Positions 36,397 through 63,854 of a DNA stretch of 64,000 bases are shown here, in pieces. The position numbers were made by a program, and so were the translations under genes. How positions within the stretch are numbered: the stretch's first letter is position 1; every line of letters begins with the position of its first letter. The stretch comes from Leptogorgia sarmentosa (taxonomy: Eukaryota), in the NCBI GenBank assembly GCA_964658305.1, contig OZ210885.1, positions 8,494,001-8,558,000 of the forward strand, written 5' to 3'. The notes beneath the pieces are model-generated. The model did not search any database. It was not told the origin of the DNA and saw nothing but the letters and a program-made list of their open reading frames with translations.

Positions 36397-36504
36397 CGTC
36401 TTTACAATTCGGATACGTAACGCCATAGTGGCATAAAACTATATACCTTTACCAGCGAGTCTACATCATTGATTTAGTCCTTACCGCTGGTGATTTGTAT
36501 TAAA

Positions 36505-37684: not shown

Positions 37685-37898
37685 TAATTTGAACAAAACT
37701 GTATCTTTGTATGTATTTAAATAAATATTTTTGTATTTATATCGTGTCATTATGTTGTCGTTGTTCATTTTTAACCTACTTTACCTAGAGTGAACATGTC
37801 ATGTTTAAAGGGTGGATTGCCCTCTATAAAATTTAGACGAATACGTTGCATGTTTGCATGTTGCTCGGGAAAGATTGTGATTCAACAGTCCAACCTTG

Positions 37899-38981: not shown

Positions 38982-39050
38982 AAGTTATAATACCAATGAT
39001 TTAACGTGTAAAATATCCCAACAATAATAAGAAAAAAATATATACATGTT

Positions 39051-39761
39051 TTATACACTCGAGTCAGAATATATCGTAGTACTTGATCCTGAAGATGAAC
39101 TCGTGGTGAAGTTCATCGATATAATTTCGTCAGTATTCTGATGTCGATCTCGCCAACAGCAACACAAAAAACGCTTTAGTCTTATAATAGTATATAATAG
39201 TACCAGAGTGAAGACGAATGTTGATAGGGATATCGCTATTTCTCGGGATCTGTTGTGTGTTTGGGATTTGATATTATTTGGGTGGTGAGTAGTGGTGTAG
39301 AATAACTGATCAGATGAAGGTTTCTTGTGGTATGGAGTTGAGGGTGAAGTTTTGTAGCTACGATGAGTGGGCATTGTCGAAGAATCTGCGCGTGTTGATA
39401 ATTGTGGTGTATGAACGGATGTTGGCGTCGAATAGCAGTCACTTTTGATTTCAACCTTCTTCGATGTTTTTATTTTACCGCATACTTGTGGATTCTGACG
39501 CAGGTCGATCACATTGAGGTTCTTGTATGCCGAGATGGTTTCATCGTCGACCCACGTTATGTTGTTCCCTCTAAGATCCAAGGTTACGACCACCTCGTGT
39601 TCATCGATTAACGGAACCTTTTCGAGAGAACACCCCACACAATCCAATAGTCGGATACTTTTAATATATTTACAGCAACTGTGACTGCCAGAAACTTTGT
39701 TTAAAAATAAAATAAAAAGTAAAATGCTGAGAAATTCTATTGAATGCATCTTTCTGTTCAC
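39051..39761 (-). CDS. LRR-containing type I membrane protein (Polinton accessory gene)
   Basis: Signal peptide FLSILLFILFL; Cys cap; LRRs TLDLRGNNITWV and VIDLRQNP; S/T/P-rich stalk; TM IAISLSTFVFTLVLLYTII; CCC; Ser-rich tail. Confidence 0.75.
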   Translation of the reverse strand: MNRKMHSIEFLSILLFILFLNKVSGSHSCCKYIKSIRLLDCVGCSLEKVPLIDEHEVVVTLDLRGNNITWVDDETISAYKNLNVIDLRQNPQVCGKIKTSKKVEIKSDCYSTPTSVHTPQLSTRADSSTMPTHRSYKTSPSTPYHKKPSSDQLFYTTTHHPNNIKSQTHNRSREIAISLSTFVFTLVLLYTIIRLKRFLCCCWRDRHQNTDEIISMNFTTSSSSGSSTTIYSDSSV

Positions 39762-39898
39762 GACGCGAGAAACACCTTATAGCACAAAGTGTCAAATATC
39801 AAAAGCACGCGTACTCTCATACCGCCGGGGGATTTCAGATCAAACTTATAAGATCCATGACTCAACGTGTTGTATTCATTTGTCACTTACTCACCGCC

Positions 39899-40654
39899 AT
39901 GGCTAGTCAGTTTTATCTTACTTTACCATCAAACAGTTCAATGGAATATTTTCCAGGCAATACTCTGACAAATTTTAAAACTAAACTTGCACAACCCATT
40001 GAACTAACAGGGGATTGGGAGGTGGCTCTTTCTGAATTCCAGTACCCTCGTAGCTGGTATAATTTACGCGATTTTGATAATCATATCTACTACGATAGCG
40101 GTGGAGATGATATCTATTCGACAAGTGTTATCCCCCATGGGTACTATCCAACCATCAAAGAGTTTGTTGTGGCTGTAAATAAAACGTTAAAGACAGACGC
40201 GCATGGAGATATTTGGCTAACATACAATAAAATAACCCGCAAAATCACGGTACATGTAAAAAATAAGGCAAAGTTGGCTTTAGCTGGCCGCTTTGCGAAT
40301 ATGATTGGATTTGAGAAGAAAGAGGTAGTTATAACGAAGAAAACAGAAGCTCCATTACCCGTCGATTTAGAAGCTGGATTTCACGCCATGTATTTGTACA
40401 CAGATATCGTTGAACCACAGTTAGTAGGGGATACTAAAGTTTCCTTGTTGAAAGTTATCAAATGTACGGGGGAGTTTGCCGAAAATATAAATGTTAGTTT
40501 TCCAAATCTTCAATACGTTCCAGTGAATGTAAAGTCATTTGAGACCGTTGAAATAGATATAAAGGATGACACACAGGAAAAAGTGCCATTTGAGTTTGGG
40601 AAGGTGATCGTGACACTTCATTTCAGACAGAGAAGATCTCCTCTATTTATATAA
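39899..40654 (+). CDS. Polinton minor capsid protein (penton)
   Basis: FYLTLPSNSS...NTLTNFKTKL..PIEL.G.WEVAL, YLYTDIVEPQLVGD...LL, VTLHFR; ATG in good context at 39899. Confidence 0.88.
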   Translation: MASQFYLTLPSNSSMEYFPGNTLTNFKTKLAQPIELTGDWEVALSEFQYPRSWYNLRDFDNHIYYDSGGDDIYSTSVIPHGYYPTIKEFVVAVNKTLKTDAHGDIWLTYNKITRKITVHVKNKAKLALAGRFANMIGFEKKEVVITKKTEAPLPVDLEAGFHAMYLYTDIVEPQLVGDTKVSLLKVIKCTGEFAENINVSFPNLQYVPVNVKSFETVEIDIKDDTQEKVPFEFGKVIVTLHFRQRRSPLFI

Positions 40655-40656
40655 CC

Positions 40657-41151
40657 ATGAGACATACATTTATACCTGACGCGAACGATTGCAAAATGTT
40701 TTACTTGAAAAATCAGAATGGTGGGACCCTTTCCGGTTTCCATGGGGCTAGAATACAGCGGGGGTATGGACTTGGTAGTTTTTTCAAGAGTATTGCTCGT
40801 GTTGCCATACCTTTGGTGAAGAAGGGTGTAAACGCAATTGGTAAAAAGGCAATAGAAACCGCTGTAAATGTTGGTCAAGACGTACTAGCAGGGAAACGTT
40901 TAAAACAAGCAGTGACAAGCAGAGGGCGACAAGCTGTGAGCGATTTAGCTAAACAGGGCGTGAATAATGTCAAAAACCAACTTGGGGGCGGTTCTAAGAG
41001 GAAGCGAGCAAATCGGTCAGGTCCTTTAAGAACTGGTTCTCAAAGGAAAGTTGTCATTTCTACTCAAGCTAGTAAACGGAGAACATCACCACTTGATACA
41101 CAAGAGAATATTTTTGCTAGTCCACCTACTAAGAAATGGCGCAAGCGATAA
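40657..41151 (+). CDS. Polinton basic core / putative membrane-active virion protein
   Basis: QRGYGLGSFFKSIARVAIPLVKKG amphipathic helix; Q-x-G-x-G putative protease sites; K/R-rich; lies between the capsid genes. Confidence 0.7.
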   Translation: MRHTFIPDANDCKMFYLKNQNGGTLSGFHGARIQRGYGLGSFFKSIARVAIPLVKKGVNAIGKKAIETAVNVGQDVLAGKRLKQAVTSRGRQAVSDLAKQGVNNVKNQLGGGSKRKRANRSGPLRTGSQRKVVISTQASKRRTSPLDTQENIFASPPTKKWRKR

Positions 41152-42482
41152 ATACCCTACATAAAGATTCATGCGGCTGCGGAAAATCAGAACTCGAATT
41201 ATTTACAGTACCACCTACACAGATTGAAATGAACAAAGGTTTTTGGGAAAGTGTTGATCCTGTTTCAAGCGTTCAAACCTCTGACACTATTGAATTTCTT
41301 TGTGCTGCTAACCCCGACGTCTACACAGACCTGGCGAATAGCTACCTTCACGTGAAAGCGAAAATAACAAGGGCGAATGGTGCTAACCTAGAGGTTGACG
41401 AACAAGTAGGGCCCGTGAACCTGTGGTTGCACGCAATGTTTTCTCAAGTTGAAGTTTTCTTGAACAATAAACTTGTTACACCATCAAGCACGGCGTATCC
41501 CTACAGAGCGTACTTAGAAACCGTATTAAATTTCAGTAAAGACGCCAAATCATCTCAGCTAACGTCCGCGTTGTTTTACAAGGACAAAGCCGGGAAAATG
41601 GACTCTGTGAATCCTATGGCAGATGACGATAATGTGAATACCGGACTAAAAGATCGCTATAACCATTCGAAGGAAAGCAAAATGGTTTCCATGGAGGGAA
41701 GAATTCACTCTGACCTTTTTGCCCAAGAACGTTACATTTTAGGTGGGGTTCCTATTAAGCTCAAACTTGTGCGATCAAGTGCTGCGTTTTCGCTGGTGTC
41801 TTCAGTTGATCCACCTGCCTACAAAGTCGTGATAGAAGATTGTGTCTTCCGTGTGCGCAGAGTCAATGTTTCTTCTACCGTCATGATTGGTCATACAGAA
41901 GTCCTGAAACATACCACGGCAAAGTATCCCATCAACAGAGTCGAATGCAAAGTGTTTTCCGCTCCGAGAGGAAACTATTCTGGAAATCAACCCAATATCT
42001 TTCAGGGACAATTGCCTGATAGAATTGTCATCGGCATGGTTGATTCCACGGCTTTCAATGGTTCCTTCAGGAAAAATCCGTTTAATTTTAAAAACTACGA
42101 TATGACCTATCTTGGACTAACCGTAAATGGGGAGCATTTGCCTAGCAAACCACTTCAGATGAAATTTGGTGTCGAACAAGGGGCCAACTACGTATCGGCG
42201 TTTCAAACATTGTATGCTGGTGCGAATAAGCTGTTTCAGAACGAAGGTAATGGCATCTCGCGCGACGAGTACCCTAATGGTTACACATTGTTCGTGTTTG
42301 ATCTGACAGCCGATCTTTGTTCAAGAGATCATCTACAACCTATTAAAAACGGCAACGTCTCACTGGAAGTTCAGTTTGGTACAGCTCTTAACTGGGCTAT
42401 AAATATCGTGGTGCTCGGAGAGTTTCAAAACCTTATTGAAATCGACGCTAACCGCAACGTGCTGTGTGATTTTAACAGTTAG
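41136..42482 (+). CDS. Polinton major capsid protein (double jelly-roll)
   Basis: 448 aa; KSELELFTVPPTQ, YPYRAYLET, P.RIVIGMV...AFNG...NPFNF, GYTLFVFDLT. Confidence 0.92.
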   Translation: MAQAINTLHKDSCGCGKSELELFTVPPTQIEMNKGFWESVDPVSSVQTSDTIEFLCAANPDVYTDLANSYLHVKAKITRANGANLEVDEQVGPVNLWLHAMFSQVEVFLNNKLVTPSSTAYPYRAYLETVLNFSKDAKSSQLTSALFYKDKAGKMDSVNPMADDDNVNTGLKDRYNHSKESKMVSMEGRIHSDLFAQERYILGGVPIKLKLVRSSAAFSLVSSVDPPAYKVVIEDCVFRVRRVNVSSTVMIGHTEVLKHTTAKYPINRVECKVFSAPRGNYSGNQPNIFQGQLPDRIVIGMVDSTAFNGSFRKNPFNFKNYDMTYLGLTVNGEHLPSKPLQMKFGVEQGANYVSAFQTLYAGANKLFQNEGNGISRDEYPNGYTLFVFDLTADLCSRDHLQPIKNGNVSLEVQFGTALNWAINIVVLGEFQNLIEIDANRNVLCDFNS

Positions 42483-42483
42483 A

Positions 42484-42948
42484 ATGAACACTCTACAGAT
42501 TCTAAACGTGCTTCAAAGTGATTCGTTTACCAAGTCAGTGTTTACGAGTGTGGTCCCTTCGGATCGTCTACCGGATACTATATCAGAAAAGCCCAGGGGA
42601 TTTGTTGTGAATGTCGATACTAGTGATGGTCCTGGCTCGCACTGGGTAGCTATTTACCTGACAGCTGATGGAAAAGGGGAATTTATGGATTCTTACGGAC
42701 AAAAACCTAGCTACTACAGCGAGAACTTTAAAACATTTTTAGAAGATAATAGCAGTACTTTTATTTATAATAAGTTAACTTTACAGTCAGCATGGTCTAA
42801 TGTGTGTGGGCAGTATTGCCTGTTTTATGCACTCCATAGATGTAGAAATATACCAATGTCAACTATTACTAATATGTTTACGAATGATAAGGAATGGAAC
42901 GATATGCTTGTAAGGGATTTTATATGTAAATGGTTTTTTGTGCAATAA
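42484..42948 (+). CDS. Polinton cysteine maturation protease (adenain/Ulp1-like)
   Basis: GSHWVAIY, DSYG, LQ...CGQYC catalytic motifs; ATG at 42484. Confidence 0.93.
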   Translation: MNTLQILNVLQSDSFTKSVFTSVVPSDRLPDTISEKPRGFVVNVDTSDGPGSHWVAIYLTADGKGEFMDSYGQKPSYYSENFKTFLEDNSSTFIYNKLTLQSAWSNVCGQYCLFYALHRCRNIPMSTITNMFTNDKEWNDMLVRDFICKWFFVQ

Positions 42949-43013
42949 ATGTATTCAACAAACGATTTTTGGTTCTATGTTTTTTATTTATTTCAAACAA
43001 TCATACATTTTTT

Positions 43014-43745
43014 CTATCTAAACCATTTGTATGGTCGACTATTCAATTGAACTCGTTGCTTCTTTGCCGCAGCTCTAGTTCGTGACAAAGGTGGTTTAGA
43101 TGGGGGTTCTTCTTCGAGTTCATGCATTGCCCCAGTTTTAAAATCTCTGATTGTCTTTAAACGATTCTCGTTCCTAACAATTCCCTCAGGAACATTGACA
43201 TCGCTCAGTACTTTTGCAAAGAGTCTCCAGCCGTGAGGATTGAAATTCTTTCTGTGACGTAGCGCATCGTTCACAAGATCTATCACGTTACTCCCCACCA
43301 CAGGTTTTCCCTCGTAGATTATCTGGCCTTTGTCGTCCCATGTAATCAAATCTTTATTTTCTTTCAATTTTTTAACCAGTTGTCGGGCTCGAGATTTCAT
43401 CGTAGGAGGAACACTTTCCATAATATCAGCTTCAACATTGTTAGGTAAATCTACGCTGTCTTCTGGTTGTGTTTCAGGCTTGTCGTCAGTTGGTTTAGGG
43501 GGTACGACGCTTACTCGAACTGGCTGACTCATTCTTTTATCATAATAGTTCAAGTAGCGTTGGAGTATTTGGTTGTACAGTGTAGCTTTCTCATCATCAG
43601 TAACGTCTTGTCTTCTAAGTAAACTATTCATTTCCCCATCTAAATTATTCACTTGCGAGGTCAAAGGCGGAACTAGTGGTTTTCTTTCTGTTGTATTCTC
43701 TGCCAAATGTTCTGGCACAAGGACTAAGCGTTTAACGTGTTCCAT
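43014..43745 (-). CDS. Polinton conserved protein of unknown function
   Basis: 243-aa intact ORF with W...G.I...G..V.GSNVIDLV motif; ATG overlaps upstream stop (TAATG). Confidence 0.7.
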   Translation of the reverse strand: MEHVKRLVLVPEHLAENTTERKPLVPPLTSQVNNLDGEMNSLLRRQDVTDDEKATLYNQILQRYLNYYDKRMSQPVRVSVVPPKPTDDKPETQPEDSVDLPNNVEADIMESVPPTMKSRARQLVKKLKENKDLITWDDKGQIIYEGKPVVGSNVIDLVNDALRHRKNFNPHGWRLFAKVLSDVNVPEGIVRNENRLKTIRDFKTGAMHELEEEPPSKPPLSRTRAAAKKQRVQLNSRPYKWFR

Positions 43746-44074
43746 TACTTAATCAAAAGACTGGCTAATTGTTCAACTATCGGTGTAAGGATCAGAGGTA
43801 GAAAACCTTCTCCCTTTTGTAAAAGCAATTTTCTTCGTTTATTCAAAGGATTTCGCTTGTCGGCAACAAAACGTAATTTCTCTTTGACTGGAACAAGTCG
43901 CTTCAAAACACGTGGACTAACTTTAATTGTTTTCAAATAAACATTCAAACAACACTCCGTCAACGCCTCCAGCAGATCGTTGTGCGCGACCTTAAGTATA
44001 GCCTTTCGTTGAGTGGGAGTGCACTTTCGTAAAACTCTTAAAAAGTCGGAGTTCCTTCTGATACGAGCTGACAT
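43745..44074 (-). CDS. Polinton small basic protein with QKGEGFL motif
   Basis: 109 aa, K/R-rich; C-terminal Q-x-G-x-G site followed by a hydrophobic helix. Confidence 0.7.
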   Translation of the reverse strand: MSARIRRNSDFLRVLRKCTPTQRKAILKVAHNDLLEALTECCLNVYLKTIKVSPRVLKRLVPVKEKLRFVADKRNPLNKRRKLLLQKGEGFLPLILTPIVEQLASLLIK

Positions 44075-44110
44075 GACTAAATGAAGTTCAGTGCATTGAG
44101 GTGACTGTTT

Positions 44111-44782
44111 TTACGTTCGTGGTACATAAACGTAATGTTTATCGGTCGGGAATATGCCTGAGCGCAAGCGTGTTTCATCCGGACACGTGGGTGTTAAGTC
44201 GATAAATAAATATGAAAACGGTTCTGCTGTAGCCATTTGATACGCTTGCTGAAAAAACTTCACATTTTGGGGGTAAATCTGCTTAGCTAAATGAATAACT
44301 TGGCTCGCATCTCTCACATTCTTTGTTAGCACAATGTAACTCGCGTTTAATGAAATTGTACGATGATCTTTACTCTGATGAAATAAGTTTTGGACAATGT
44401 AAATCACGCTGAGATTACCATGATGAGATTTTTTAGTAAACAATTTTGCTATTACTGCATCCCTCTCACCCATCATATCATCAAATATATAAAGATTTCG
44501 CGTTTTTGGGTTGATACTATCAAATATTGCATCTGGTACACCTTCAATAAACTCCATCTGCGGGACTAATGATTTTATCTCGGCAAATGTATCTTGATAC
44601 TCAGAATAAAAATATTTTATGTTCTCTGGTGGTGGATCAATCATCACTTGAAAGTGACTTAGCAATTTCTTAACAAATGTTGTTTTGCCGGTTTTTGTGC
44701 CTCCTGAGACAAGGAGACCAAAAGGATGTGTTAATTGTAACGAATACATCGGTAAACTGAGTGAACTGAGTTCACATCGCAT
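44111..44782 (-). CDS. Polinton A32/FtsK-like packaging ATPase
   Basis: Walker A GGTKTGKT, Walker B YIFDDM, SHHGNLSVIYIVQNLF, RTISLNASY. Confidence 0.93.
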   Translation of the reverse strand: MRCELSSLSLPMYSLQLTHPFGLLVSGGTKTGKTTFVKKLLSHFQVMIDPPPENIKYFYSEYQDTFAEIKSLVPQMEFIEGVPDAIFDSINPKTRNLYIFDDMMGERDAVIAKLFTKKSHHGNLSVIYIVQNLFHQSKDHRTISLNASYIVLTKNVRDASQVIHLAKQIYPQNVKFFQQAYQMATAEPFSYLFIDLTPTCPDETRLRSGIFPTDKHYVYVPRT

Positions 44783-44976
44783 TATTTATACTTTTTCATA
44801 CCACCTCGTAATATCATTAGCTCTTTCAGGATGCGATCTAAAGGTAGTATTTTCGCTTGATTCAAATACAGTTTTCTATCTTTAATTGATAGATGATGAT
44901 AATCAGCTAAGTGGTTGGAAAGTTTTAGCAAACCCTGTTTCCCACATAGCGGACAGTCTTTACGCAAACGTGGCAT
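44782..44976 (-). CDS. Small C2H2-type zinc-finger protein
   Basis: MPRLRKDCPLCG...LSNHLADYH; stop overlaps ATPase ATG (TAATG). Confidence 0.6.
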   Translation of the reverse strand: MPRLRKDCPLCGKQGLLKLSNHLADYHHLSIKDRKLYLNQAKILPLDRILKELMILRGGMKKYK

Positions 44977-45024
44977 GATGTAAACTAAACTTAACAAACC
45001 ACAACATGAAAACTAAATAGGAGA

Positions 45025-45230
45025 AAAGTCCCGTGGAGGGACAAATCGTGTCCCGCGAGTCCCGTAAGGCAATATTAGATTTTGTAAAAGTCCCGTGGAG
45101 GGACACAAAGTCCCGTGGAGGGACAAATCGTGTCCCGCGAGTCCCGTAAGGCAATATTAGATTTTGTAAAAGTCCCGTGGAGGGACACAAAGTCCCGTGG
45201 AGGGACAAATTAAGTCCCGCGAGTCCCGTT
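45025..45230. repeat. 82-bp-period tandem repeat with GTCCC-GTGGA-GGGAC hairpins
   Basis: GTCCCGTGGAGGGAC at 45028, 45090, 45110, 45172, 45192; GTCCCGCGAGTCCCGT at 45050, 45132, 45214. Confidence 0.9.
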
Positions 45231-45385
45231 TCAGCAAAACTAACCCATACACACCGTAGGGTCTCAAATTAATTTATATAATGCACATATAAGTTTTTCT
45301 CAAAATGGATTGTTATTTGAATAGTCATACACACATATTAGGTCTAGGAAGATATATTTATACAAACTATACTATTTACAAAATC

Positions 45386-48300
45386 CTAAATATCTAAAGG
45401 AACGGTTGTTACACCGTCCTCCAAAACTTTACGTTTTGGATAAAAATAACTAAAAGCGTTTTTAACTTGAACATATGTGCACATCTTATTATTTAAAACC
45501 CTAAATCCCCTATTTACACCCGACCCACTACGTTTACTCAAAATGACATCTAAATATTTATCCTTATTAATTACATTATTTCTCTTATTTACACCTTTAC
45601 AACTAAATTTATCTTTCCCATCCCCAAAACAGTAATATGTTTTGCTACAAAGACTAATACATCCATCCCCTTCCCACTCAACTTTAAATAAACCAGGCGT
45701 TCTCTTATCATATTTTGCATGCTCTACCGTGTCCGTTCGAGGAAACCAGTTACATTTATCGTTCTCAAACTCACACATATTTTCAGGTTTTATCAAATCT
45801 TCTAGACGTTCCCCGCTAATGGCAATATATGCACTGTCGGTATCCATTTCGCAATATTCGAAATCCGACCTATCTAAATATTTATCTAAAAAATCATAAT
45901 AAAATTGTAACATACGTAATTTGGCGTATTGGTAAACGAAGAATCCAACTTGAAGAGGCAAGTCCAGTTTAATTTTTTTCTTGCTGCTTTCCACCTCGTA
46001 CGTGTTGTCGTCGATAGCGTTCAATTCACGGAAAAATGGCGAGTTGATTAAGCTTGACACTTCGTCGTCGTCGCAAAATTTCACTTGACGATGTCGCTCT
46101 TTGTTCGTGATAGTTTTCCCATATGACGAATTCCCAACGAGTTTCATCGTATCTGCGATTATTGCTTTGGCAGGGTCAGCATCTCCAGCACGACGGGCAT
46201 TCGATACTGCGTCACCAAAGGGTTTGAAACATGGTTTAGGTGTATATTCTATCACCTGATAGACGCGTGTTACCTATAAAAAACAAAAATGACATTAGTA
46301 ATGAAACCTATGCTTATTAACCTATACGTAATACGTACCTCTAAACCATGTTGCAAATACCACTTTAAGAGAGGTGTGGCCAACAAAATTTTTTCACCGA
46401 CCATACTTCCAATGAGACTTCTGCGAGGTCGACGCATGATGTCGTTTTCTTCGGCGTAGGCTTTCATAAAGTCGCCTATATCGTCTCGAGATATCTCGGT
46501 GTTTTTGAATATAGGACACATTTCGGAAAATTGTTCACGTAAATGTTCTGGAACGTGGATGTCACACTCTACGCACCCAAATAACTTCTCATCTCTCACA
46601 GCATCGAGAATGGACTGTAGTGTCATTGTCTTCACCTTGTCTAATGGTCGTCGTAGTCGAGTAGCGATAAATCGTTGTAATTCTCTGTTCGTCTTTTTTC
46701 TCTCACGCCATTCACATTCCCAGCACTCGACAAGATTGAAACCTTGCTTGCGGATATACGAGCTGTTTCTCCGTGTCTCTTCGAGCAAGTCTTTCATGGG
46801 TTTGTCCCGCGTCGTGTTGGTGTCTTTGCCCTGGTTTAAGTGGCAATCATGGCCATGCCAATAACAACCTAATACGAAAAAAGAGAAAGTTAGCACATTT
46901 GACATGGTATCTTTAATCGATGTTTCCCATAAACGAACTTACCGTGAAATTGAAACACCGTTTGTGTTTCGGAACAGAATCCGTCCACTGGAAGGCGACG
47001 AGCTCCAATTCTCTTCTCTGTATTGTTATTTTGGTGTCTAATTTTAACACCACGTTGGTAAGCTTGCCATTCCAACCACTCTACAGCCATTTTACCACTC
47101 CATTGCTTCTTAAAGTTGTCGCCTTCCAGTCGACGAGTATACTGCCCCGTTGGCATATCTTGCATGATCGCCCAAAGGTATAAAGCATTCGCATCGTAAC
47201 CGACCACTTTCTTGCAGGGTTTGGGTTTTAAGTTCTTTCTTCTCATTTCTACGTTGCGTATATTTGTCTTGTCTTTTTCGTGGTATCTGTTGAATATAAT
47301 ACTAGGACCACCAACGTTATTATCTTTCATGGTATAGTACAAATCTTTGTCTTTTTCAGTAAATAGTGAGAAGTATATATCGGGAACATTGGAAAATAAA
47401 TATTTCATCGTCAAACCTGGCACGCTTACACCGTCCTTAAAAATATCGATATTTCGTTCTTTCCAAAACTGGCTCATTTTTTCAATAGCTTCGAGAAAGG
47501 GAACAACATCAAGATTATTATACCACACCAAAAAGTCTCGAAAAGTTCCCATACCATGATCGTTCCACACGCTTTGACAATAGCTGTACTGTTCGTTGGT
47601 GATGTCGGTGTTGGAAAGTGTTGAATGAAACGCCTCGTGAGGTGGTAAGGTGGGGAAATTTAACTTATCAAGGGAGTCGACCCATTCGTATGGAAAATAT
47701 CCTTTGGTCTGCGTGCACTCGTAGGCTTTGAGGAACTGTTCGTAGGAAAATCCAGGAGCCAAGTAGTTTGTAATGTCGAGAAACTTCAAGTGTGAGGTCT
47801 TCAGACACATGTGATTGTTGTTTCGCTTTATCACAAACTGGACTTCCTCATGTTTCACTAGGTGAGCAAAGAAGGGGTTTTTGGCAGCATTGATGTCGTA
47901 CTTGCCTGAGTTGAATCCGAGGACGGGCAGCTCCATGAGGTAGCGTTCCAACTTTTCCCGAAGTTTCTCGAGAGGGTGGGTCTTTTTATTTTCATCCTAA
48001 AAGATAAGAATGGATTAAATTGTATGTTGAAGCTGAAAATTTTGAAACCAGTGAAAATCATACATACCTCATTTGCCTCGTCCTCATTTGCTTGACTATT
48101 GTCATCTTCACTCTCCTGAAAAAAATAGAAAACAATAATAAGACTACGTATTGCAAAGAGCAAGTTGACCAACAAAATCGTATATACCTCGTTCAATGAC
48201 AGTATACACTGCACCATCTCTTCCATATCACCGCTTTCAGTACACACCTAAACACAATATAGTCATAAGTACAAGTCTCAAATTTAGTCATTCAAATGCA

Positions 48301-50668
48301 CAACTTACCTCATTGTTTCCCATTCGCTGATTGATTCGTTCAAATACATCGGAAAAGTGGTCCAACAGCAATGTGTAACTCTCTTGGCTGATTTGGACCA
48401 AATAGTCAATGAATTGTTTGATCATCTCTCTGGTATTGCCAGAGGACACAAAACACTTTGGTTGATCATAACCAGGGACGTTGGAGCACACAGAGACACT
48501 CAATGGGACATGTTCAGCTTCCCATGTAAGCTTTGCTGTGTTTCTAGGGTGGTCGTCTTCTTTCTGAAAATAACATTCAAAGTCGAATGTTGCCCGATAC
48601 GGAAAGTACTTCAAGTCTTCGGGGATCACAACACCTTCGTCTTCGAGCAAATCGAATATCGTTTGTGGGATTTTGTAAACGCCACCAGGGAACACGTGTC
48701 GGACAGTCGCTTCGCATCTTTTCTCGTGCTGATTTAATGCTTTTGCTGTTTTCCACAGCTTGTCACATTTAGAACAACAGTATGATTTTGAATACATACT
48801 TATATTCTTTATATAGCTGAAATGATTTCCATAGAGGTTGAGATATAGGCTGTTTGTGAAAGTGCGATGAGATCTCTGAATCAGTTGCGCAACGATCTTG
48901 GTATTCTCAGTATCTTCGTCCTCACATTCCACGAGTCGATACACGTAAATGTTCACTTCAAATAACTTTTCCAAGTCGGGAAGTTCTTCAAGGGTCACAC
49001 CATCGAAATCTTCGCCATCTTCAACGTACCGTTCAAAATAGTGTTGTGTGTCGCGTTCCAGATTGTGGGAGTGACATCCACGGTGTAGAGCCAAACAACG
49101 GAAAAAACACAGTTTGTCCTCGTACGGTAAACCAGTTTTCTTACTACAGTCTAGGGAAACAACAGCAGGATTTTCTAACACGTATTTGGGTAAACGAGTG
49201 CTACGTCCAATGGGATGATCGCGAAGTTTTGTCACGTAGAATGTGGCGTTAGGGATATCCGCAACCACCCACTTGGAATTGGGACGTTGTTGGCGAGCCC
49301 ATTCAAAAACATCCAGATTTTCTAGCGCTGACCGAATTTGTTCCAAATCCTCACGACTGCGAACCAAAAACGGTGCTTCGAATACCCGGTTGTTATTGGC
49401 TGACGAATGGTGGTACTGCATCTGCTCCGTGTCGTTGTTAAATAGTACGAAACCAAACGACAAATTCAGTTTGAAAACGGTCGTTTGGTCTTGGAATATG
49501 CGTTCAACATCCTGCACAAGTTCAGCCATATTCAAGGAGCTTAGGCGATAATTATACCAGTCCTGAACTCGATTGCCACGACTTTGTCTAGTCCGGATGG
49601 TGCGCCAGTTTTCTCGATGAAGTGTCGAAGGAAGGTCGGGTGGTGGGTAGAATGGATCTTGAGGAAACTGATTCGGTGGAATGGTAACCGTTGTCTCTAC
49701 CAAAACAAAGAATTATTTTTCAGACACACGGCTTAACTTTATAAATTTCCTATAAGAAAAACGAATATTTCAATAGTGTCAACACACAATTTTTACACCA
49801 ACCTTCGTTTACTCGAGCTCGTTTTGTCTGGGTCGATGTACCGTCGGTTGCCTTGCGTTTAAGACCACTAACTCGCCCGCTCGATTTCCCTACAGAGAAA
49901 AACGTTTACAATTCGATAAATTGTTTCAACGATATTATTGACTCTTTTTTACTTACCTTGGTTTACTCGGGTTGTTGCTGTCCTCTTCCGTTTCCCACCA
50001 CCAACCTGATGCACATTTCGTTGATGCGCTTGTAGCGGGAATATATTTCGAAACACCTCACCACAAATATCACACGTATATTCACGTTCCGCTCCTCGTC
50101 GCTCATGCATCTTTAGATGGTCGTTGAGCTTGTCCTTGAAAATAGAAAATAATACACGTTAGCAAAATTCAAATGAAAATTTATGTGAACAAATCTGTAA
50201 CCGGATCATACCTTTCGACTAAATTTCTTGTGGCATTTGTGGCACTCGAAGGTTTTTTCTTGATGGACTTTCTCATGGCGCTTTAATACATCGACTGTGG
50301 TGAAACTCTTATCACAGGTCTCGCAAGTAAACAACTTCTCCCCAGTATGTACACGCTTGATATGGCGCTTCAAGGTGCTAGCGCGTGTAAATTCTCGACC
50401 ACATTGATCACAAACATAACCAGACCTGGCTGGCTCTTCCCAGTCGTTCCATTCGACAAGAACTTGCTGTTGGGTTTCAGGCGACCAAGACTCGAACATG
50501 TCGTCCACCGCTAACGCGCACAGTTGTCGATTTAGTTCTTCATTCTCAAGATCTCCCATAAATTGATCTCTCCTAAAGTAAAAAACCATACTCTTAATAC
50601 TGCTAAAACCAAAACCAAATACAGTGCATTAGAACTTACCAGATACTTTCTTGATGTTGTTTGGCCAT
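45386..50668 (-). CDS. Protein-primed family B DNA polymerase with N-terminal C2H2 zinc fingers; 10 exons, about 1540 aa
   Basis: Exons 50668-50640, 50572-50212, 50134-49957, 49889-49803, 49696-48309, 48247-48188, 48115-48068, 47996-46943, 46868-46339, 46273-45386 join in frame (4623 nt). Exo FDFE, FNSGKYD, YNNLDV; Pol YDANALY, KLVGNSSYG, DTDS. Confidence 0.92.
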
Positions 50669-51079
50669 ATCTCAAAATAAATTTCTCGAAAGGAATAGCT
50701 GTGTTGCCGGTTGACAGGTAAAGACTGATGTATACTCGGTGGTAAAGTTCAGATAAAGACTGATGTATACTCGGTGGTAAAGGTATATAGTTTTATGCCG
50801 TAACGTAACGCTGTTGGACCAATCAGAACACGATCAGACACGTATCCGGATACGTATCCACATACGTATCCGAATTGTAAAGACGCTGTTCAAACAATCA
50901 GAACACGTATCCGAATTGTAAAGACGCTGTTCGTCCAATCAGAACACGATCAGACACGTATCCCGATACGTATCCGAATTGTGAAATTCAACCAATCAGA
51001 ACACGATATTCCCACAACGTAAACTTTCCTACACGGTACTATAAATACATTCCAAAAACCAAAAAATATCCATTACAGC

Positions 51080-51568
51080 ATGGACAACATAACAGCCATC
51101 ATCGATATGGACGGTTTTACCGTCGAAAAAAGATTTTATTGTAAGGAGCTGGCCATGATCAAGAAGAATAGCACCTATGCCACATCCATACTCTTCGACC
51201 TCGGCTTGAAATGGAACCAGCTGAATGAAAAAGACAAAAAATCAGCGCGTTACCTGGAGAAGCACATCCACAAAATTCGTTTCAACTCCCCATCAACCGT
51301 CCCACTATCCAACCTACCTGAAATCGTTAAAAATTATTTCAGCGAGCCAAACACCTTGGTAGGTTACAAAGGAGGACATTTTGAAAAAGACCTCCTGGAT
51401 CAACTGGGAATTCCGTTTGTAAATCTGGAACACTTCGGATGCCCCAAAGCCGAACAGCTGTTTCAGAAACTTGGATGGTTGGAGACGTGTGGACATCACC
51501 TCACCCCCGACGCATACCACCATTGCTCGAAAGTCGAGGTCGAAGCGTTTGCGATGTGGTTGTGGTAA
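51080..51568 (+). CDS. DEDDh-like 3'-5' exonuclease with putative E-C-H-C zinc site
   Basis: IIDMDGF (D9, D11), KELA (E23), KGGHFEKDLL (E102), CGHH (C137, H140), HCSKVE (H148, C149, E153); TATAAA at about 51039 and CCAAT boxes upstream. Confidence 0.65.
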   Translation: MDNITAIIDMDGFTVEKRFYCKELAMIKKNSTYATSILFDLGLKWNQLNEKDKKSARYLEKHIHKIRFNSPSTVPLSNLPEIVKNYFSEPNTLVGYKGGHFEKDLLDQLGIPFVNLEHFGCPKAEQLFQKLGWLETCGHHLTPDAYHHCSKVEVEAFAMWLW

Positions 51569-51657
51569 AAACAAACAAACAAAAACGGTTCTTTTAAGAA
51601 CCACCAAATCTCATAAAAGAATAAAAACGGTTAACTCGATCAAATTTTGGTACGTCA

Positions 51658-51903
51658 CTGTTCAAACAATCAGGGCACGATCAGACACGTATCCCGATAC
51701 GTATCCGAATTGTGAAATTCAACCAATCAGAACACGATATTCTAATGAGTTCATGGCCTCAATACGCATGCGCATCCCTGCGCACCCCTGCGCAGCCTCG
51801 CACCACCTCACGCAGCCTGCACCACCCTACACCACCCTGCACCACCCTGTACCACCCTGCACCACCCTGAAAAAGGGGCTCGATCGGCCTATATAATACT
51901 ACT
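51658..51903 (-). repeat. Polinton right TIR
   Basis: Reverse complement of 36151-36396; ends ACTACT, followed by TSD ACGGTC. Confidence 0.95.
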
Positions 51904-54900
51904 ACGGTCGACGCCTTCCCTGCTCGCATTTTAAATGTTACATAATACATTTCAACTATAAATATTTTTGTTTTCGATGTTTTCCAGCGAGCTCGAAATT
52001 AGCTCAGACGGTTAGGCACGCAGTGCGTGCGTTGTAGTTTTATAGTTCAAGCCCCGGCTCTCGCTACGGGTCTTCAGCTGCTTAAAGGCCTTCGACAGTC
52101 CACATTGTGCCTGTAACGATTATGTAGATAAAAACCCTCTACAGTCTCATTATTAATTAAAAGAAGCCGTTTAATTTTAAAACACATCAGCGCAAATTAA
52201 ACAACAACAAAATTGGCCACAAACCTAAGAATCCTGAACTATGCGTCATAAGAGCAGACATATTTGTTGCTTGCGATTTTCTATGCGCGAAACTTTAACA
52301 GCTAAAATAAAAGCAGCTAGGGTATAAACAAGGTCTATAAATAGTTTAGAATTGGGAAAGTGTTATCTCATGCAGGGTGTAATTTTGTCAATCATAAATA
52401 TTGAAATAAGTGAAATAAAGTGACGCTAAAATAATATCTTCGTAGATCAACAACTTTTTTGGCTGTTTTAAATTTAGAATAAAATTTAGAATTATATCCT
52501 ATCCATCTTTATAAGACCAGTTAAATGAAGGTTTCAAGAATCTGGAAATTGTATTCAAGCTTTTAGATTTCTTCAAGAGAAATAAGAGTGCTTCACATCA
52601 TGTTGTGTTGTTTTTCATTGATATCTTCCTTAAGTCTCGCTGAAGAGCAATAGTAGAGAGTTTAAACTTCGGGTATTTCGCGAGGAATAGGGGAACTCCC
52701 AAGTCGCGAAGTTGTATTTATCCGAACACAAAGCAAACGTAATAATGAATGTCTTTAAGGCTGCTTGCTATTAAATTAACAATTAGATCATACAGAATAT
52801 GCCAAAATTTTGCATTCCTTCGAGCCTGAAATCCGTCTCTGCCGCTAATTAAATAAAGGATCTTTTTCGCGATTGTTTCCCGCCTTCATTGAAAGCGTTC
52901 AACGCTTGCAACCATACACGAGTTTAAATGTTTCCAGTATCGTTCAGGTAGAATAAAGTAAATAAAAGGACTGATGGCAAAATTAAGAGATAATATCGCC
53001 ATAGGAACAGCGCGGAACACAATATTTTTACATCTGCCTTGAAACGCTTATCATTAACCGACCCTGGAGTCACAGTTACGATTGTTATTATGTTGTACAA
53101 GTGATTATAATTCTGATGTTCAAAAACGTTTGCTCTTTTTGGTTTTGAACGACTTAGGATTTTTTGAGCGTTTAGTGGAAGGGTGATTTAGGGGAAAAAT
53201 CCCCTCAGGCTTTGAGCACATTTGAGTGGTGTTCACCGTGGATAAATTGTTATCAAAATATCCAATTGTATAATTTCGTTCACGATCTTGTTTACTTTTA
53301 ACACATTCATTCTTCTGTTCATCGAGCGATTGAATGTGTTTGTTTTGTCTTCCGGGAGGTTCACTTTCTGTTCTCTACTCCTATATCCTGAACATTAGCA
53401 AGTCCGATAACCAATCGCTGATCTTACACACAAATATCACTATAAGTTGATACAAGAGCTTTCTTTATGGTATGGAACGAACTTAGCAACCAAACAAAAC
53501 ATCTGCCAATTGAAACACAAAACAAATTTGTTGATATATTATTTGCACCAGACAACACTTCGCTACGCGTCTACAAAAGCGGCCAGCGAAACCGAAATTC
53601 AGAATTGGAAATTGGAACCGTCTTACAGGTGAGCTTATACGTTATACGTTAAGCAAATATAGGATCAGTGGATTTATATATTCCGCATCTTGAATTTATG
53701 CAAAGAAGTTGTACAAATGTTTCATGCAAAGTTAAGACAAAATATGGCAACATGATAAATAATGCTCACTTTGAAAAACATGGGCCATTAACAACGACAC
53801 AGTATCTTGAAATCAATTGAAAAATTTTACATCGTCCATCTTTGTTCATGTTTTTGCAAAACCTCGCACTCTACTTCACTAGTTGAGTGCTGACAACGAC
53901 TGATAATTTCAATAGACGCAAGGAGTAGTATGGCTCAGGTATGTTACCGTATAGTAACTTTTATAATACAATTATTTGGTTTTTTCGGTAAAATATTTTG
54001 CTATTTACATTTTGCCATTAAAAGAGAAAAACCTGAACCAGTCTTCATCAACATAGCTGCAATTCGACAGATCCTGTGTGTAAACTGACCCATTTTGGTA
54101 AATAATATTTGAGATAAATTGTCGCTCATTAGGCATTTAAGTTAGAGATGTTTGCGGCACATGGATAACAAACGGCAAATCGTATATTGAGTTCTGCTGT
54201 TCGTTGTCCTGCTGTTCGTTGTCCGAAGTTGGGGTGATTCAGAAAACTAAAAGGTGAATCATTTTTACTGCCGAAAACTTGTAGAAATTATTTTAAAATA
54301 CCACGGGCGGAGAGAGAGGTTGAGCCAACAATGTATAAAGGCTGTCAGCGATTCCACAAAACAATCAACATCATTCAATCGAATGAATTGTTATATAGTA
54401 CATTCTTGAAGAGTACAAAAAGTCTATCTGTCTATCTAAACAATACAAAATTAAAAAATATTTCTTGAAATGTATAAATTGGGTATATCAAGAACGTACT
54501 ATTTGACCGCCACCCGGTCAGGTTTCAAATGTACTAAGTGACCGGCAGTCACAAAGTCGCAGTCTAATATAATAAAATTGTTTGTGGCAATTGAAATATC
54601 AGGCGGGAATCTTAATATGAATATTTATGCCCAGCAAGCGATTTTTAATGAATACATATTAAAACTATTCAGTTTTATATAAAATTAATTTTTACTGCCG
54701 AAAACTTGTAGAAATTATTTTATTTTAATATAAAATTGTTTGTGGCAATTGAAATGCCAGGCGGGAATCTTAATCTAAATATGAATATTAATGCCCACCA
54801 AGCGATTTTTAATGAATACATATTAAAACTATTCAGTTATATAAAATTCATTTTTACTGCCGAAAACTTGTAGAAATTATTTTAAAATACGATTTGAAGT

Positions 54901-55238: not shown

Positions 55239-55470
55239 GGCTATCTGTAAAACCCGGAACGGGGAATCGGGGAACGGAACGAGGAACGGAACGAGGAACG
55301 GGAAAACCCGGAACGAGAAAAGCCGGAATCTGTAAAACCCGGAACATGAAAAGCCGGAATCTGTAAAACCCGGAACATAAAAAGCCGGAATCTGTAAAAC
55401 CCGGAACATAAAAAGCCGGAATCTGTAAAACCCGGAACATAAAAAGCCGGAATCTGTAAAACCCGGAACG
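55239..55470 (+). repeat. DNA-transposon end with about 31-bp tandem repeats
   Basis: GGCTATCTGTAAAACCCGGAACGGGGAA then repeated AAAAGCCGGAATCTGTAAAACCCGGAACAT; related to 26183-26890. Confidence 0.7.
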
Positions 55471-55826
55471 AGGTGTTACGGCAAAATGGTAAAAATAATG
55501 TAAAATGCACTTTTGACTGCACTTGCTATGCAACCTACCATGCAGATACAGAGAAATAAAAACATTTTCGCAACGTTCGCAACGAAACCAGGAATCATTT
55601 TCTTTCATTTATGTACGAGTGCCAGCCTCGTACCCAGGCTCTTCGCAGGGACGCAAGGGCGGGCGCGCAAGGGGTCTTGGGGAGGTCGCAATTGGGAAGC
55701 GAAGAGCCTGGCAGAAAGTGGCGTCAAAGTGGTAAATCGTGACCGAAATGTGGAAAATCGAAGATGTATTGATTTTGAAGGAATTTTCGTGGCTATTTAT
55801 ACTTGGGAATGATTAGTTGGGATGCA

Positions 55827-58800: not shown

Positions 58801-61800
58801 ACTCTTAGACTAATAAATGGATGAATAATTAAAAAATATTTTTACCATTGATAAATGGTAAAAATATCACAAACAATTCAGTGGCGAAGCCAGCCTGACA
58901 ATTTGGTCCTGCTACTGTATGCAAATTCTTCCATGTTCATGCAGAGTAAAATATTTTTTATGTCAGGCCACACTTGTTTACCATTAGACTGTTAACGCAG
59001 GTGCTGGCTGCAAATGGCCTCTTAAAGATTTTACTCTGGCTAACAACAGACAGTTTTAGTCATCAAGGGGAAAGCTCCCAGCGGCAGTGGTTAAACTTCA
59101 AAATTTAAACCTCTATTACTCTTTTTACCATTCGGCATTAAGTATGTAATCACACAGGATCTTGTGCACAGTAATTAATGCAAAAGCCACCATGCATGGT
59201 GAGCAATTTGGCCAGTCTGTTCTTCAAGGATCACTCCTGTAGAGTGCATTTAGTTGAACAAAATCTTGCACTCTTCCTGATGAATCACAATTGTCTCTGT
59301 TATTTTCAATTAGAATCCATGCCTGAACACAAGAAAATCTGGAATGACTGGTGTGACAGATATTATTTGGAATTAATTAATATGAGTGTGAATGAAATAC
59401 CTAAACCACCAAAGGATTTTAATCAAATGGAAGAAGCTGAGTTAAATTCCTGGCTTTCGAAAATTGACTTCAACGAGGTCCCACACCAAGAGAAACAATT
59501 AAAAATCGATGTTCCATTGAAGCAAGACCTTTGTCAAAAGAGTCAAACATCAAAGACAGAGGTATTCAACCTTCCTTTATCTTTGGAAGATAATTCAACA
59601 CTGAATGGTACAGCATCAATATTTAACGAGTTTGCCAAAGAATTTTCCTTTCCATGCCCCACAAAGAGTGAGATCCCATTTAATAAGTCAGAAAAGAAGT
59701 TCGATCTTCATGCTGGTCGTAAACAGTTTGATTTTATGAGGTCGGTAGAGCTGCATCATGCACAAATGAATGAGTTCGAAAAGCAGTTGAAGAGCATAGA
59801 AAAGGGGTTGGATGGAGTTACAGTTGAAGATCTCCCCCCATCTTCAGACAGCGATTCTGATGATAGTGGAGATAAGGATACCCAAGAGTCTGTATCAACC
59901 AACAACAGCAAAACTCCACTACAGCAAAAGGATGAGATTTTTGCAGAACTCTGTCAGAAAATCAATGCACAGGTTCAAAGTCATGCCCAATCTGACTATT
60001 CTCTTGACAAACTTGTAGGCGAATTGATGAAAGATAGTAAGTCACTGAATTCCACAAAAGACAGATATGAGAGAACTATTTTTCATTATGCAGTTGAGAC
60101 AAGAAACCATGCACTGGTAAGGGTACTGCTAGCTATTGGAGTGAACCCAAATTGCAAGGAAGGCTGCGGAGCTACCCCACTGTCAATTGCTGTGATGAAC
60201 TCAGATGTTGCTATGTGTAAGCTGTTGCTTGATAACTTTGCTCTTCATAGCGGTCCATTTTATAGCAACATACCAAGCCCTTTGGCAATGGCAAATGCAA
60301 TGGAATTAGAACAAATTGTTACTTTGATTGAAGATAATGTTAAAAGTAATGAAAACCCATTGTTACCACCAACTCCACCAACTTGTGAAAGTTCTGATCC
60401 AGAAGACCATTTTGAAACTGCATTCACATATAAAAGATCAGTTTCTGAAGGCTTTCCTACAGGAATTGTGGGTGACGTTGGGACATGTAAGTTAAATCGA
60501 AGTGTGAAAAATAGGAACCTTACAGCATATGGTTGGTCTACCGAGATCCCAGGAGACATGCATGCTAAAGGCCATCTGTGTGAAGCTGCTTTTAAAGCTC
60601 ACAGTAAAGGTGGTTTTCATAAAATGGTGAGTGATGTCATGAAAAGACCGAAATTGACAGAAGAGGCCTTTAAGAAAAGAAAATTTCAGGAACAAAATCT
60701 CCAACATATACAGGAAGCTGTTCGGGATGGTAGCATTGCTTATTGTGTTGCAGCTGTTCAAGAGTTTATGTTGTCGAGTACATTTCCATCTGATGATGAT
60801 TTGAAGGATAATGAAAGAAAATATGGAAATCATAACAAGATTTTGCTGGAAAGATTCAAGCTTTGGTTGAAGGAATGCAGTGACATTGATCAAATGCATA
60901 AATACCATCAGCAGCTGTTTAGCTTGTTTGGTCCATTGTTGGATATGTTTATCACAGCAGGACGGGAAGGAGATGGCTTATTGCGAGAAACATCATGGGT
61001 TCTTTTGCTACCGATTTTCGCTCAACTGGATTTTCGGAACTACTGGACAGAAGCATTCGTTCATGTTGTGAACTTTACTTCCCTGTGGCCACTGGCATTT
61101 AGATGTATGGTGAAGAATAATTGCACGATTAACATCAGTGGGAAGCGTGGTCATAACTTAGATCTGGATGAATATGTGGAAACATATATTGTCAGACCTC
61201 TAAAAATGTATTCATCAGGTAATTTTTTTCAGTTGAATTATTTTTATTAGAGGTATAGTGTCACACTTAGTCAAAGAAAAAGTATGTGCTTTTTATAAAA
61301 AAAATTTGGTGTATGATACTGAAAGAAATGTCTTAATCGGAAGACATTGTTACCTGTATAACAAATGAAAAAGGCACTATTTATTTTCTGTTGGCTACGA
61401 AAGGAACAAAGCAGAAAAAATGTCTTTTAGTTTTAGATAAAATTACAGGCTTGTTAGCGAAACATTTTCATACAAAGTTTACGGTCTGGAAGGTTACGTA
61501 AGGTCTGGAAACCAGCAATAAACATACTTTTTCTTTGGCCATAAGCATGTTTTCTGAGCTGCATGTACTTTGTTTACAAAGTTGGCTAGAAATTATGGAA
61601 TGTTCTTGTTCTTTAGAGATTTCCATTGCACTATACGAGTAGTGGCAATAGCAAAATCTTTGCAATTTTATTCTATTCAATACAAGTGATACCAGCTTGA
61701 AAAATGCAGCACAACAGCCTTTTAATATCTATCCTTTTACGTAGGTCACACCTCGGTTGAAATGTGCAAGCGACTTATGGGCAGCCTTGACCTGCTACGG

Positions 61801-62201: not shown

Positions 62202-63854
62202 TTATAGTCTTAGAAAAATTCTGATTTCTCTATTTCTTAAGGAAATAGCCTTCTGTCCTTGAGTAATGAACGGCGATGTGAATTTGTCATTTGAAGCTCT
62301 CATATTCTCAGCAAGAACACCACTGATAATCAAATGCTGTATAAATTTCATTGCATCTCCATCATTCTTGAAAACCTTTTGGCCTATTCCATAATGGGGG
62401 ATATTATGGAAACCCTTGCTCTCCACATCCTTCTTAGATTTTGAGCCTCTGAATGTTAGTGCTAACTGTCTGGCACTAATTTTTGCATGAATTTGACACA
62501 TTTCAGCAACACATAAGCATACATTAATTGCTTCAGGAGTATAATCCTTAGGAATTGCAGGTGGTTTCAAACAGTTGTCACAATGTCCTTCACAATCAAC
62601 TGTTGAAGAGTCGTCAAAATACTCCAAAATGACTTTTCTCCTGCATGTTGAGGACATGCAATATGAGACAACACTATCCAATGACCGTAGCAAGTAGTCT
62701 TTGTGCTCCGGTGATTCGGTTGAAGTAATTTGCTGAATTCTTTTGCTTCTGTCTTCAAAGCGAAACATTACAATGCATTCAGAGTTAAGGCCATCTCGTC
62801 CGGCCCTTCCTGCTTCTTGGTAGTATTCCTCAATGGTTTCAGGAATTGTGAAATGGATCACATAACGCACATTCTCTTTGTCGATTCCCATTCCGAATGC
62901 ACTTGTAGCACATATGATTTGAACATTTCCTGACAGCCATTTTCTTGCATTCTCACTTTTCTCAAAATAATCAAGTTGGCCATGATAGTAAGCTGCTGGC
63001 AAGCCTTTTGTTTTGAAAATGTATGCTAACTCAATTGTATCTCGAGTGGTTGCACAATAGACAATACCACAGCAATCAGGGAAATTAGCACCCACATAAT
63101 CGACTAACTCCTCCTTTGCATGTGGTCCACTTTTTGCTAGGACACGATAAAACAGATTTGGTCGGTTACAGGTTGACTGAATGATAACTGGCTCAACAAG
63201 TAGTAACTTCTCAATGATCCTCTGCTGAGTTGTAGCTGTAGCAGTGCCAGTGAAAGCTGCAATGGGTACATTAAACTTCTTGAGTTCAAACAGAGATGCA
63301 TATGATGGCCTGAAAGTTTGTCCCCAAGTGTCTATGCAATGCGCTTCATCAATAACAAATCGTGATAATGTTTTGTTGACTGCCATTTGCTCAAAACATA
63401 ATGTTACTGACGATGAAAGGGCAGATTCTGGAGTCAGATAGAAGAATTTATAACATGGTGCTTCTTTAGTTAATTCATGCAGAACTGCATCTCTTGCTTC
63501 TGGTGCCATAGACGAATTGATGTAACAGACAGAGATTCCAAGTTTTTTTAGTTTTTCAACTTGGTCATCAAGCAATGCCATCAAAGGTGTGATAACAACA
63601 GTAACACCTGCAGCTACTATACCAGGAATCCAGTAACAAACAGATTTTCCAGTACCAGTTGGCATGATTGCAACAGTATCCTTGTTATGCATCAATGTGT
63701 CTATCACCTTCCGTTGTTCGCCTCGAAACTTTTCATGACCAAAGACCTTCCTCAAAATATCTATCACCACATCTCCTGTATCTTCATCATATCTCATAGC
63801 TGTTGGTGGAAGTGTCATGCTTGTGGGATCAATTGGTGTATGAAATGTGAGATC
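62202..63854 (-). CDS. RecQ-family SF2 DNA helicase (terminal exon; upstream exons probably outside window)
   Basis: MPTGTGKSVCY, VIDEAHC..WG..FRPSY, TGTAT, ATSAFGMGIDK, YYQEAGRAGRDG, RQC Zn site CRR...C...CDNC and winged-helix-like tail; in-frame acceptor ttttcag at 63855. Confidence 0.93.
   Translation of the reverse strand, partial: DLTFHTPIDPTSMTLPPTAMRYDEDTGDVVIDILRKVFGHEKFRGEQRKVIDTLMHNKDTVAIMPTGTGKSVCYWIPGIVAAGVTVVITPLMALLDDQVEKLKKLGISVCYINSSMAPEARDAVLHELTKEAPCYKFFYLTPESALSSSVTLCFEQMAVNKTLSRFVIDEAHCIDTWGQTFRPSYASLFELKKFNVPIAAFTGTATATTQQRIIEKLLLVEPVIIQSTCNRPNLFYRVLAKSGPHAKEELVDYVGANFPDCCGIVYCATTRDTIELAYIFKTKGLPAAYYHGQLDYFEKSENARKWLSGNVQIICATSAFGMGIDKENVRYVIHFTIPETIEEYYQEAGRAGRDGLNSECIVMFRFEDRSKRIQQITSTESPEHKDYLLRSLDSVVSYCMSSTCRRKVILEYFDDSSTVDCEGHCDNCLKPPAIPKDYTPEAINVCLCVAEMCQIHAKISARQLALTFRGSKSKKDVESKGFHNIPHYGIGQKVFKNDGDAMKFIQHLIISGVLAENMRASNDKFTSPFITQGQKAISLRNREIRIFLRL

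Follow-up and report, generated by a model that had tools for sequence, protein, structure and literature searches.

A Polinton gene of Leptogorgia sarmentosa encodes a predicted DEDDh exonuclease resembling Maelstrom and arenavirus nucleoprotein

The DNA analyzed here (the window; 64,000 nucleotides of contig OZ210885.1 from Leptogorgia sarmentosa) contains a 15.75-kb Polinton (36151-51903) that carries a small gene, P0001, whose product is predicted from its structural model to have a DEDDh fold with Maelstrom (MAEL)-type zinc residues. In DEDDh enzymes, four acids hold two metals and are accompanied by a histidine, and 3'-terminal nucleotides are cut. The interpretation that we favor, tentatively, is that P0001 encodes an active, zinc-stabilised DEDDh 3'-5' RNase of the MAEL/arenavirus nucleoprotein (NP) type that weakens host RNA-based defence. 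The gene has been labelled before. To that label this analysis adds the conservation of the catalytic positions, their register with the residues of Lassa NP, and the presence of the family in large DNA viruses; together these make a counter-defence hypothesis testable where there had been only a name.

P0001 is present as a single copy in the window, and its product is a stand-alone, single-domain, 19-kDa protein in which no Pfam domain was found, HMG box included. Every motif listed for it in the initial annotation was found at the position given there, namely D9-M-D11, K22-E23-L-A, G98-x3-E102-x2-L105-L106, C137-x2-H140, and H148-C149-x3-E153. When the protein was shuffled 100,000 times, a loose motif pattern, written post hoc from the P0001 residues, was matched once; judged from sequence, conservation across the family (below) argues more strongly against chance motifs than does this shuffle test.

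The predicted core topology, b1-b2-b3-aA-b4-aB-b5-aC, is DEDDh/DnaQ-like. The initial annotation had proposed a DEDDh/DnaQ fold with likeness to MAEL and arenavirus NP, and both proteins were among the best structural matches, with key residues in register; the fold outside the DnaQ/DEDD class that it had named as its undoing was not what a structural search of the model returned. Residues 3-162 of the model aligned to residues 383-542 of arenavirus NP with the catalytic residues and G392 in register, where four of the five catalytic positions are anchored by the alignment ends and E102 is placed by motif and secondary structure only. D9, D11, E102, E153, and H148 are predicted by the model to lie in a two-metal site. 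The Glu-Cys-His-Cys (ECHC) residues of MAEL and NP are also present, with the Glu on strand 2, C-x2-H, and a Cys just ahead of the last helix, and the C/H/C residues of P0001 are in register with C290/H293/C302 of Bombyx MAEL. By analogy, E23, C137, H140, and C149 would bind a structural zinc. Separately, the equal His-to-Cys spacing (9) in P0001 and Bombyx MAEL was considered and rejected as evidence, as values from 5 to 16 occur for this spacing in the 20 most frequent patterns of alignment A2 (below).

At the sequence level, P0001 and MAEL share 7-15% identity. The Maelstrom family PF13017 matched 0 of 77 members of alignment A1 at E ≤ 1 and was absent from the best 25 of 31 families for the 75 members of A2 at E ≤ 5, and Protein Data Bank sequence searches with the query and both profiles gave chance-level matches or none, with no MAEL or NP link. 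The Atlas value of 0.85 for Maelstrom was taken as a lead only.

A word-indexed search with P0001 yielded 143 matches among 155 candidates (120 listed), and an exhaustive search yielded 784 clusters at 50% identity (E ≤ 0.001; 150 listed). No Pfam domain or informative name occurs among the listed matches, and the only named relatives among them are from the corals Oculina patagonica and Porites harrisoni (34-35% identity). Alignment A1 comprised the query and 76 near-full-length rows chosen from the 120 listed matches (77 in total), and A2 the query and 74 near-full-length rows chosen from the 150 listed clusters (75 in total); A2 rows are mostly 29-48% identical to the query, with one at 85%. 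C137, H140, C149, K97, and G99 do not vary within A2, and at least 90% of its rows keep D9, G12, E23, E102, H148, and E153. Positions 9, 11, 102, 148, and 153 read acid/acid/acid/His/acid in 74/77 (A1) and 69/75 (A2) rows, and E23, C137, H140, and C149 are all intact in 76/77 and 73/75, respectively; the corresponding counts are 76/77 and 71/75 for G12 and 75/77 and 75/75 for K97. H64, conserved in 73/77 and 65/75 rows, is a candidate for one His of the EHHCHC set (PMC2628886; this and later publications are cited from the available portions of their text).

The ratio of nonsynonymous to synonymous substitution rates (dN/dS) had a median of 0.16, with none above 0.40, among 77 pairs with unsaturated synonymous sites from 34 motif-intact open reading frames (ORFs; 33/73 sources); these pairs are non-independent and all from relatives, with the P0001 of the window in none, and the selection of motif-intact ORFs lowers dN somewhat. 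The family is under purifying selection in these relatives. These results bear on the view that P0001 is a functionless passenger, a recently captured piece of host Maelstrom, which we regard as scarcely credible. The MAEL-like fold and a repeat-bounded slot at the element end would suit a capture of this kind, but the 784 clusters, the dN/dS of ≈0.16, and the five kept catalytic positions largely refute it; moreover, P0001 has no sequence match to Maelstrom and keeps residues that animal Maelstrom lost. In a quick tree of 80 rows, none of them MAEL or NP, few deep branches were well supported, and for both reasons we claim no direction of transfer.

Several variants of the family were observed. 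P0129 contains a tandem duplicate of the domain (residues 1-166 and 169-337), and its second copy has lost the equivalents of D9, D11, and E153 and has retained the E, C-x2-H, and H-C residues, which is the same loss as in animal Maelstrom, inside one protein. The P0274 cluster is a 338-amino acid form with a C-terminal extension and 127 members at 90% identity, one of them annotated in the coral P. harrisoni, on 126 contigs; this form represents a high-copy element or else a host gene that arose by domestication. An apparent fusion, P0357 (1 match among 5,981 candidates), joins the N-terminal part of the domain, without the C-terminal Cys/His residues, to a polymerase; it looks like a gene-prediction join and was set aside.

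A metagenome scan (40 of 64 parts) returned at least 72 loci, most of them short. A Polinton core gene was found in 25 of the 72 loci listed, in 23 of the 29 that are at least 5 kb, and in 14 of the 16 that are at least 7 kb. Among listed loci with a polymerase match, the relative is within 1.9 kb of the 5' side of the polymerase in 16 of 19 (10 divergent, 6 tandem), all 10 divergent arrangements coming from one data set. Most of the loci that show context share 33-39% identity with the query; L001-L004, the closest of those listed, are too short for this purpose. Two loci (L021:40-1291 and L036:890-1945) contain two adjacent copies of the gene.

The family also extends to large DNA viruses. 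A search of IMG/VR with alignment A3 found relatives in 2 of 28 candidate stretches, L073 and L074; neither A1 nor P0261 recovered any relative from the same database. The L073 genome (127,615 bp) encodes Ac81, a thymidylate synthase, and a DNA polymerase of its own; that of L074 measures 496,396 bp. Both viral proteins keep the key residues, and alignment A4, of seven rows, shows no variation at eight of the nine and either D or E at position 11. When viral models were searched with Foldseek, two nameless entries (E 4e-14 and 1e-10), four ichnovirus ORFs, and an adintovirus protein ranked far above generic exonucleases; the last is an uncharacterised 166-amino acid protein of Drosophila-associated adintovirus 2 (E 4e-8, TM 0.79). 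In L074, the domain forms the C-terminal end of a 1022-amino acid protein (7661-10729, plus strand) with a long, low-complexity N-terminus, and A0A0K1Y8R3, the best BFVD match, is equally long.

In the mechanism that we propose, P0001 would be transcribed from a repeat block common to it and the divergent polymerase. The block at 50799-51047 is the likely promoter, a function suggested by consensus matches only (three CCAAT boxes, at 50819, 50935, and 50992, together with a TATA box at 51040). The enzyme would trim the 3' ends of double-stranded RNA (dsRNA) from converging transcripts of the element, or of small-RNA guides and duplexes, with G12 reading the 2'-OH as Lassa G392 does. The plus-strand capsid module and the minus-strand ATPase/polymerase module converge near 43.0 kb, a possible source of such dsRNA. 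Less signal would then reach Dicer/PIWI silencing or dsRNA sensors, either of which may be the target. A host-conflict role fits best because the gene is optional among Polintons, occurs in unrelated large DNA viruses, and would be redundant with polymerase proofreading.

The third of these points concerns the alternative that P0001 is a separate proofreading subunit for the element polymerase, like bacterial DnaQ, which we judge very unlikely. The polymerase region of this Polinton itself contains Exo I, II, and III motif matches, the gene is present in viruses with unrelated replication systems, and a published Polinton group is defined by cupiennin/gasderminX rather than by mael linkage (bioRxiv 10.1101/2025.02.07.637071). 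It is also improbable that P0001 is a housekeeping RNase that trims or turns over element or host transcripts (shut-off or nucleotide recycling) unrelated to silencing or sensing; patchy presence among Polintons suits a host-conflict gene better, although this is an argument from pattern only.

Other observations call for caution over an active, counter-defensive RNase. The canonical D-E-D-D identities are not found: P0001 has D-D-E-E, and in A2 position 11 is E in 25/75 rows, position 102 is E in 74/75, and position 153 is E in 72/75, giving the non-canonical set D-D/E-E-E-h. It is with MAEL that the structural alignments extend furthest, and MAEL of the SIWI-piRNA-target-GTSF1 complex (piRNA, PIWI-interacting RNA) is among these matches. 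These two features would fit a decoy, that is, a weak or dead RNA-binding Maelstrom mimic that takes the position of Maelstrom on PIWI-piRNA-target complexes or shields element RNA, so that counter-defence works by competition, and animal MAEL does bind RNA without DEDD activity (PMC4408791). Nevertheless, we consider a decoy unlikely: the five catalytic positions are acid/His in 69/75 proteins that share about one-third of their residues with the query, whereas animal MAEL has replaced them (N124, R306), and P0001 is ≈40 residues shorter than Bombyx MAEL across the aligned span, lacks the HMG box, and is only distantly similar in sequence.

Also unfavorable to the RNase interpretation, DinG-exo, DnaQ, ExoX, ExoI, and DexA were level with or above MAEL and NP in structural searches; DexA ranked first in Foldseek, and DnaQ-like folds (DinG, DnaQ) matched at Z 11-12.2, equal to MAEL and NP, over 137-139 residues. 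Furthermore, the MAEL-like gene adjoins thymidylate synthase in L073 and often adjoins the polymerase gene, its usual neighbor, and its carriers are DNA viruses. Such observations would suit a DexA-, DinG-exo-, or TREX1-like DNA exonuclease that serves nucleotide supply, trims replication intermediates, or clears exposed DNA before it reaches host DNA sensors. This possibility seems to us an improbable one: the ECHC site has been reported for MAEL and arenavirus NP but for neither DNA-phage nor most cellular exonucleases (PMC7968707), G12 corresponds to the residue proposed for the RNA specificity of Lassa NP (PMC3429428), and the link to the polymerase is non-independent, since its 10 divergent arrangements share one data set.

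If P0001 is indeed an active RNase, a broader and more doubtful proposal would be that an active MAEL-type RNase, common to Polintons and several large DNA viruses of invertebrates, suppresses small-RNA silencing or dsRNA sensing, is built on the scaffold of a host piRNA factor, and forms a third branch connecting protist MAEL nucleases, animal Maelstrom, and the arenavirus NP exonuclease, possibly the pool from which the arenavirus enzyme came. PMC7968707 regards the ECHC zinc site as common to Maelstrom and arenavirus NP and states that no zinc fingers had been identified in dsDNA-virus exonucleases; a widespread DNA-virus family with catalytic and zinc motifs would alter that picture and bear on the origin of the arenavirus enzyme. 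It would also give one answer to how Polintons persist under piRNA and RNA interference surveillance, an answer that is testable at the bench with a 19-kDa single-domain protein that has a predicted active site.

The features of the Polinton are collected in Table 1. Its terminal inverted repeats are 100% identical, and thus the insertion is young. The placement of P0001 as right-end cargo in the initial annotation holds, as its stop codon comes 89 bases before the perfectly matching stretch of the terminal inverted repeat on the right. P0001 is divergent from the polymerase region, whose ORF pieces are likely separated by introns. The capsid and protease ORFs have no informative Pfam match, and their homologues occur in identical order in locus L023.

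P0001 sits between both copies of an 85-bp direct repeat. Two blocks of the subterminal repeat are present at each Polinton end (50799-51742 and 36312-36848), separated by ≈210 bases at the left end and by the whole P0001 gene at the right end, and the 85-bp repeats are a possible slot for gene gain or loss by recombination. Two further cargo genes were observed. One at the left end (36926-37684, plus strand) encodes GRF zinc fingers (PF06839, E 4.6e-19) and has CCAAT and TATA matches upstream, and a homologue lies near the MAEL-like gene in locus L005. The other, between the integrase and capsid genes (39051-39749, minus strand), has a weak leucine-rich repeat match (PF13855, E 2.5e-4) together with a hydrophobic N-terminus and a likely transmembrane segment. 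An 82-bp tandem repeat (45025-45229) separates the ATPase gene from the 3' end of the polymerase region. Outside the Polinton, fragmented retrotransposon ORFs (DUF1759, DUF1758), which we take to be of the BEL/Pao type, lie directly to its left (32338-35240, plus strand); an Ankyrin and DUF6589 ORF (59178-61250, plus strand) and an intronless RecQ helicase ORF (62202-63818, minus strand) possibly belong to another mobile element; and two arrays of a related 15-16-bp repeat are at 26199-26970 and 55272-55500.

Table 1. Coordinates and residues of P0001 and of the Polinton that carries it (window positions)
Feature	Position	Strand	Remarks
MAEL-like DEDDh exonuclease gene (P0001), predicted	51080-51568	+	162 amino acids, ATG to TAA, uninterrupted ORF
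P0001 candidate catalytic residues	D9, D11, E102, H148, E153
P0001 candidate zinc ligands	E23, C137, H140, C149
P0001 G12			Corresponds to Lassa G392
Likely promoter, subterminal repeat block	50799-51047	+	Consensus matches; between P0001 and divergent polymerase region
Candidate polyadenylation signal	51620-51625	+	AATAAA, 52 bases past P0001 stop
85-bp direct repeat, copy 1	50927-51011	+	94% identity between copies
85-bp direct repeat, copy 2	51658-51742		Inner end of right terminal repeat
Left terminal inverted repeat	36151-36396		246 bp; begins AGTAGT; preceded by target duplication ACGGTC (36145-36150)
Right terminal inverted repeat	51658-51903		246 bp; ends ACTACT; target duplication ACGGTC directly after it (51904-51909)
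Integrase, rve and chromodomain	37899-38981	+	PF00665, E 1.6e-15; PF00385, E 8e-13
Penton, core protein, major capsid protein, protease	39857-42948	+	Four ORFs; names inferred from order and size
Packaging ATPase	44111-44782	-	PF04665, E 9.5e-5, slightly below curated cut-off
Protein-primed DNA polymerase B region	45386-50589	-	PF03175, E 5.7e-6; several unjoined ORF pieces

The P0001 family is most likely the adintovirus/Polinton 'MAEL' (mael) gene, an accessory gene named after Maelstrom (PMC8502044; bioRxiv 10.1101/2025.02.07.637071; bioRxiv 10.64898/2026.07.28.741253), a link made by the label and by the match to the adintovirus 2 protein. Like that gene, P0001 lies inside a Polinton with terminal repeats, a target duplication, integrase, protein-primed polymerase, and ATPase. 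'MAEL' marks genes four times in panel A of Fig. S2 of PMC8502044, beside insect-virus maps as judged by layout, and is not mentioned in the available main text of that paper. Insect polintons have been divided into mael-linked and cupiennin/gasderminX-linked groups (bioRxiv 10.1101/2025.02.07.637071), and MAEL appears in a list of adintovirus ORFs whose annotation used BLASTP, CDD, and HHpred (bioRxiv 10.64898/2026.07.28.741253). The novelty that the initial annotation implied is therefore lower. In the available portions of these sources, the published labels concern insect elements and are labels alone, without catalytic residues, a zinc site, an arenavirus link, a function, or large DNA viruses. 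No functional or catalytic-site analysis of a viral MAEL gene was found in the literature searched, with subscription journals and preprint supplements outside its scope; the available text of the Polinton papers does not mention such a nuclease, that of PMC2628886 does not mention viruses, and a search for nudivirus and Maelstrom gave one match, a reference title only. The comparison also drew on available portions of PMC11161782, 10.1101/2023.08.22.554363, PMC13269885, PMC4501690, and PMC4517127.

Among characterised proteins, the best analogue for how P0001 may work is the protist MAEL nuclease EHI_192630 of Entamoeba histolytica, a Mg/Mn-dependent exoribonuclease in which, as in P0001, catalytic residues and ECHC are both present (PMC4408791; PMC2628886); compared by description, EHI_192630 is cellular with DEDD acids, whereas the P0001 family is viral with D-D/E-E-E-h acids. 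Animal Maelstrom (Bombyx 5af0/9nhc, Drosophila 4ybg; PF13017) has an HMG box and has lost the acids, Bombyx MAEL being inactive and RNA-binding (PMC4408791), whereas P0001 has no HMG box and keeps the acids, and its aligned span is the shorter one. The DnaQ-like DNA exonucleases (E. coli epsilon 1j53, the S. aureus DinG exonuclease domain, T4 DexA) share the fold but give shorter alignments. The arenavirus NP exonuclease (Lassa NP; 4g9z, 3r3l) is a domain of crystal chains of 506-517 residues with canonical DEDDh acids and an N-terminal genome-binding domain, in contrast to the stand-alone ORF in a DNA element described here. Lassa NP digests dsRNA, and G392 contacts the 2'-OH, its mutation disrupting both activity and immune suppression (PMC3429428); the dsRNA specificity depends partly on stacking by Y429. 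By analogy, P0001 would resemble the ancestral, active MAEL type and would work most like protist MAEL and the arenavirus NP exonuclease, being itself neither an animal Maelstrom nor a nucleoprotein.
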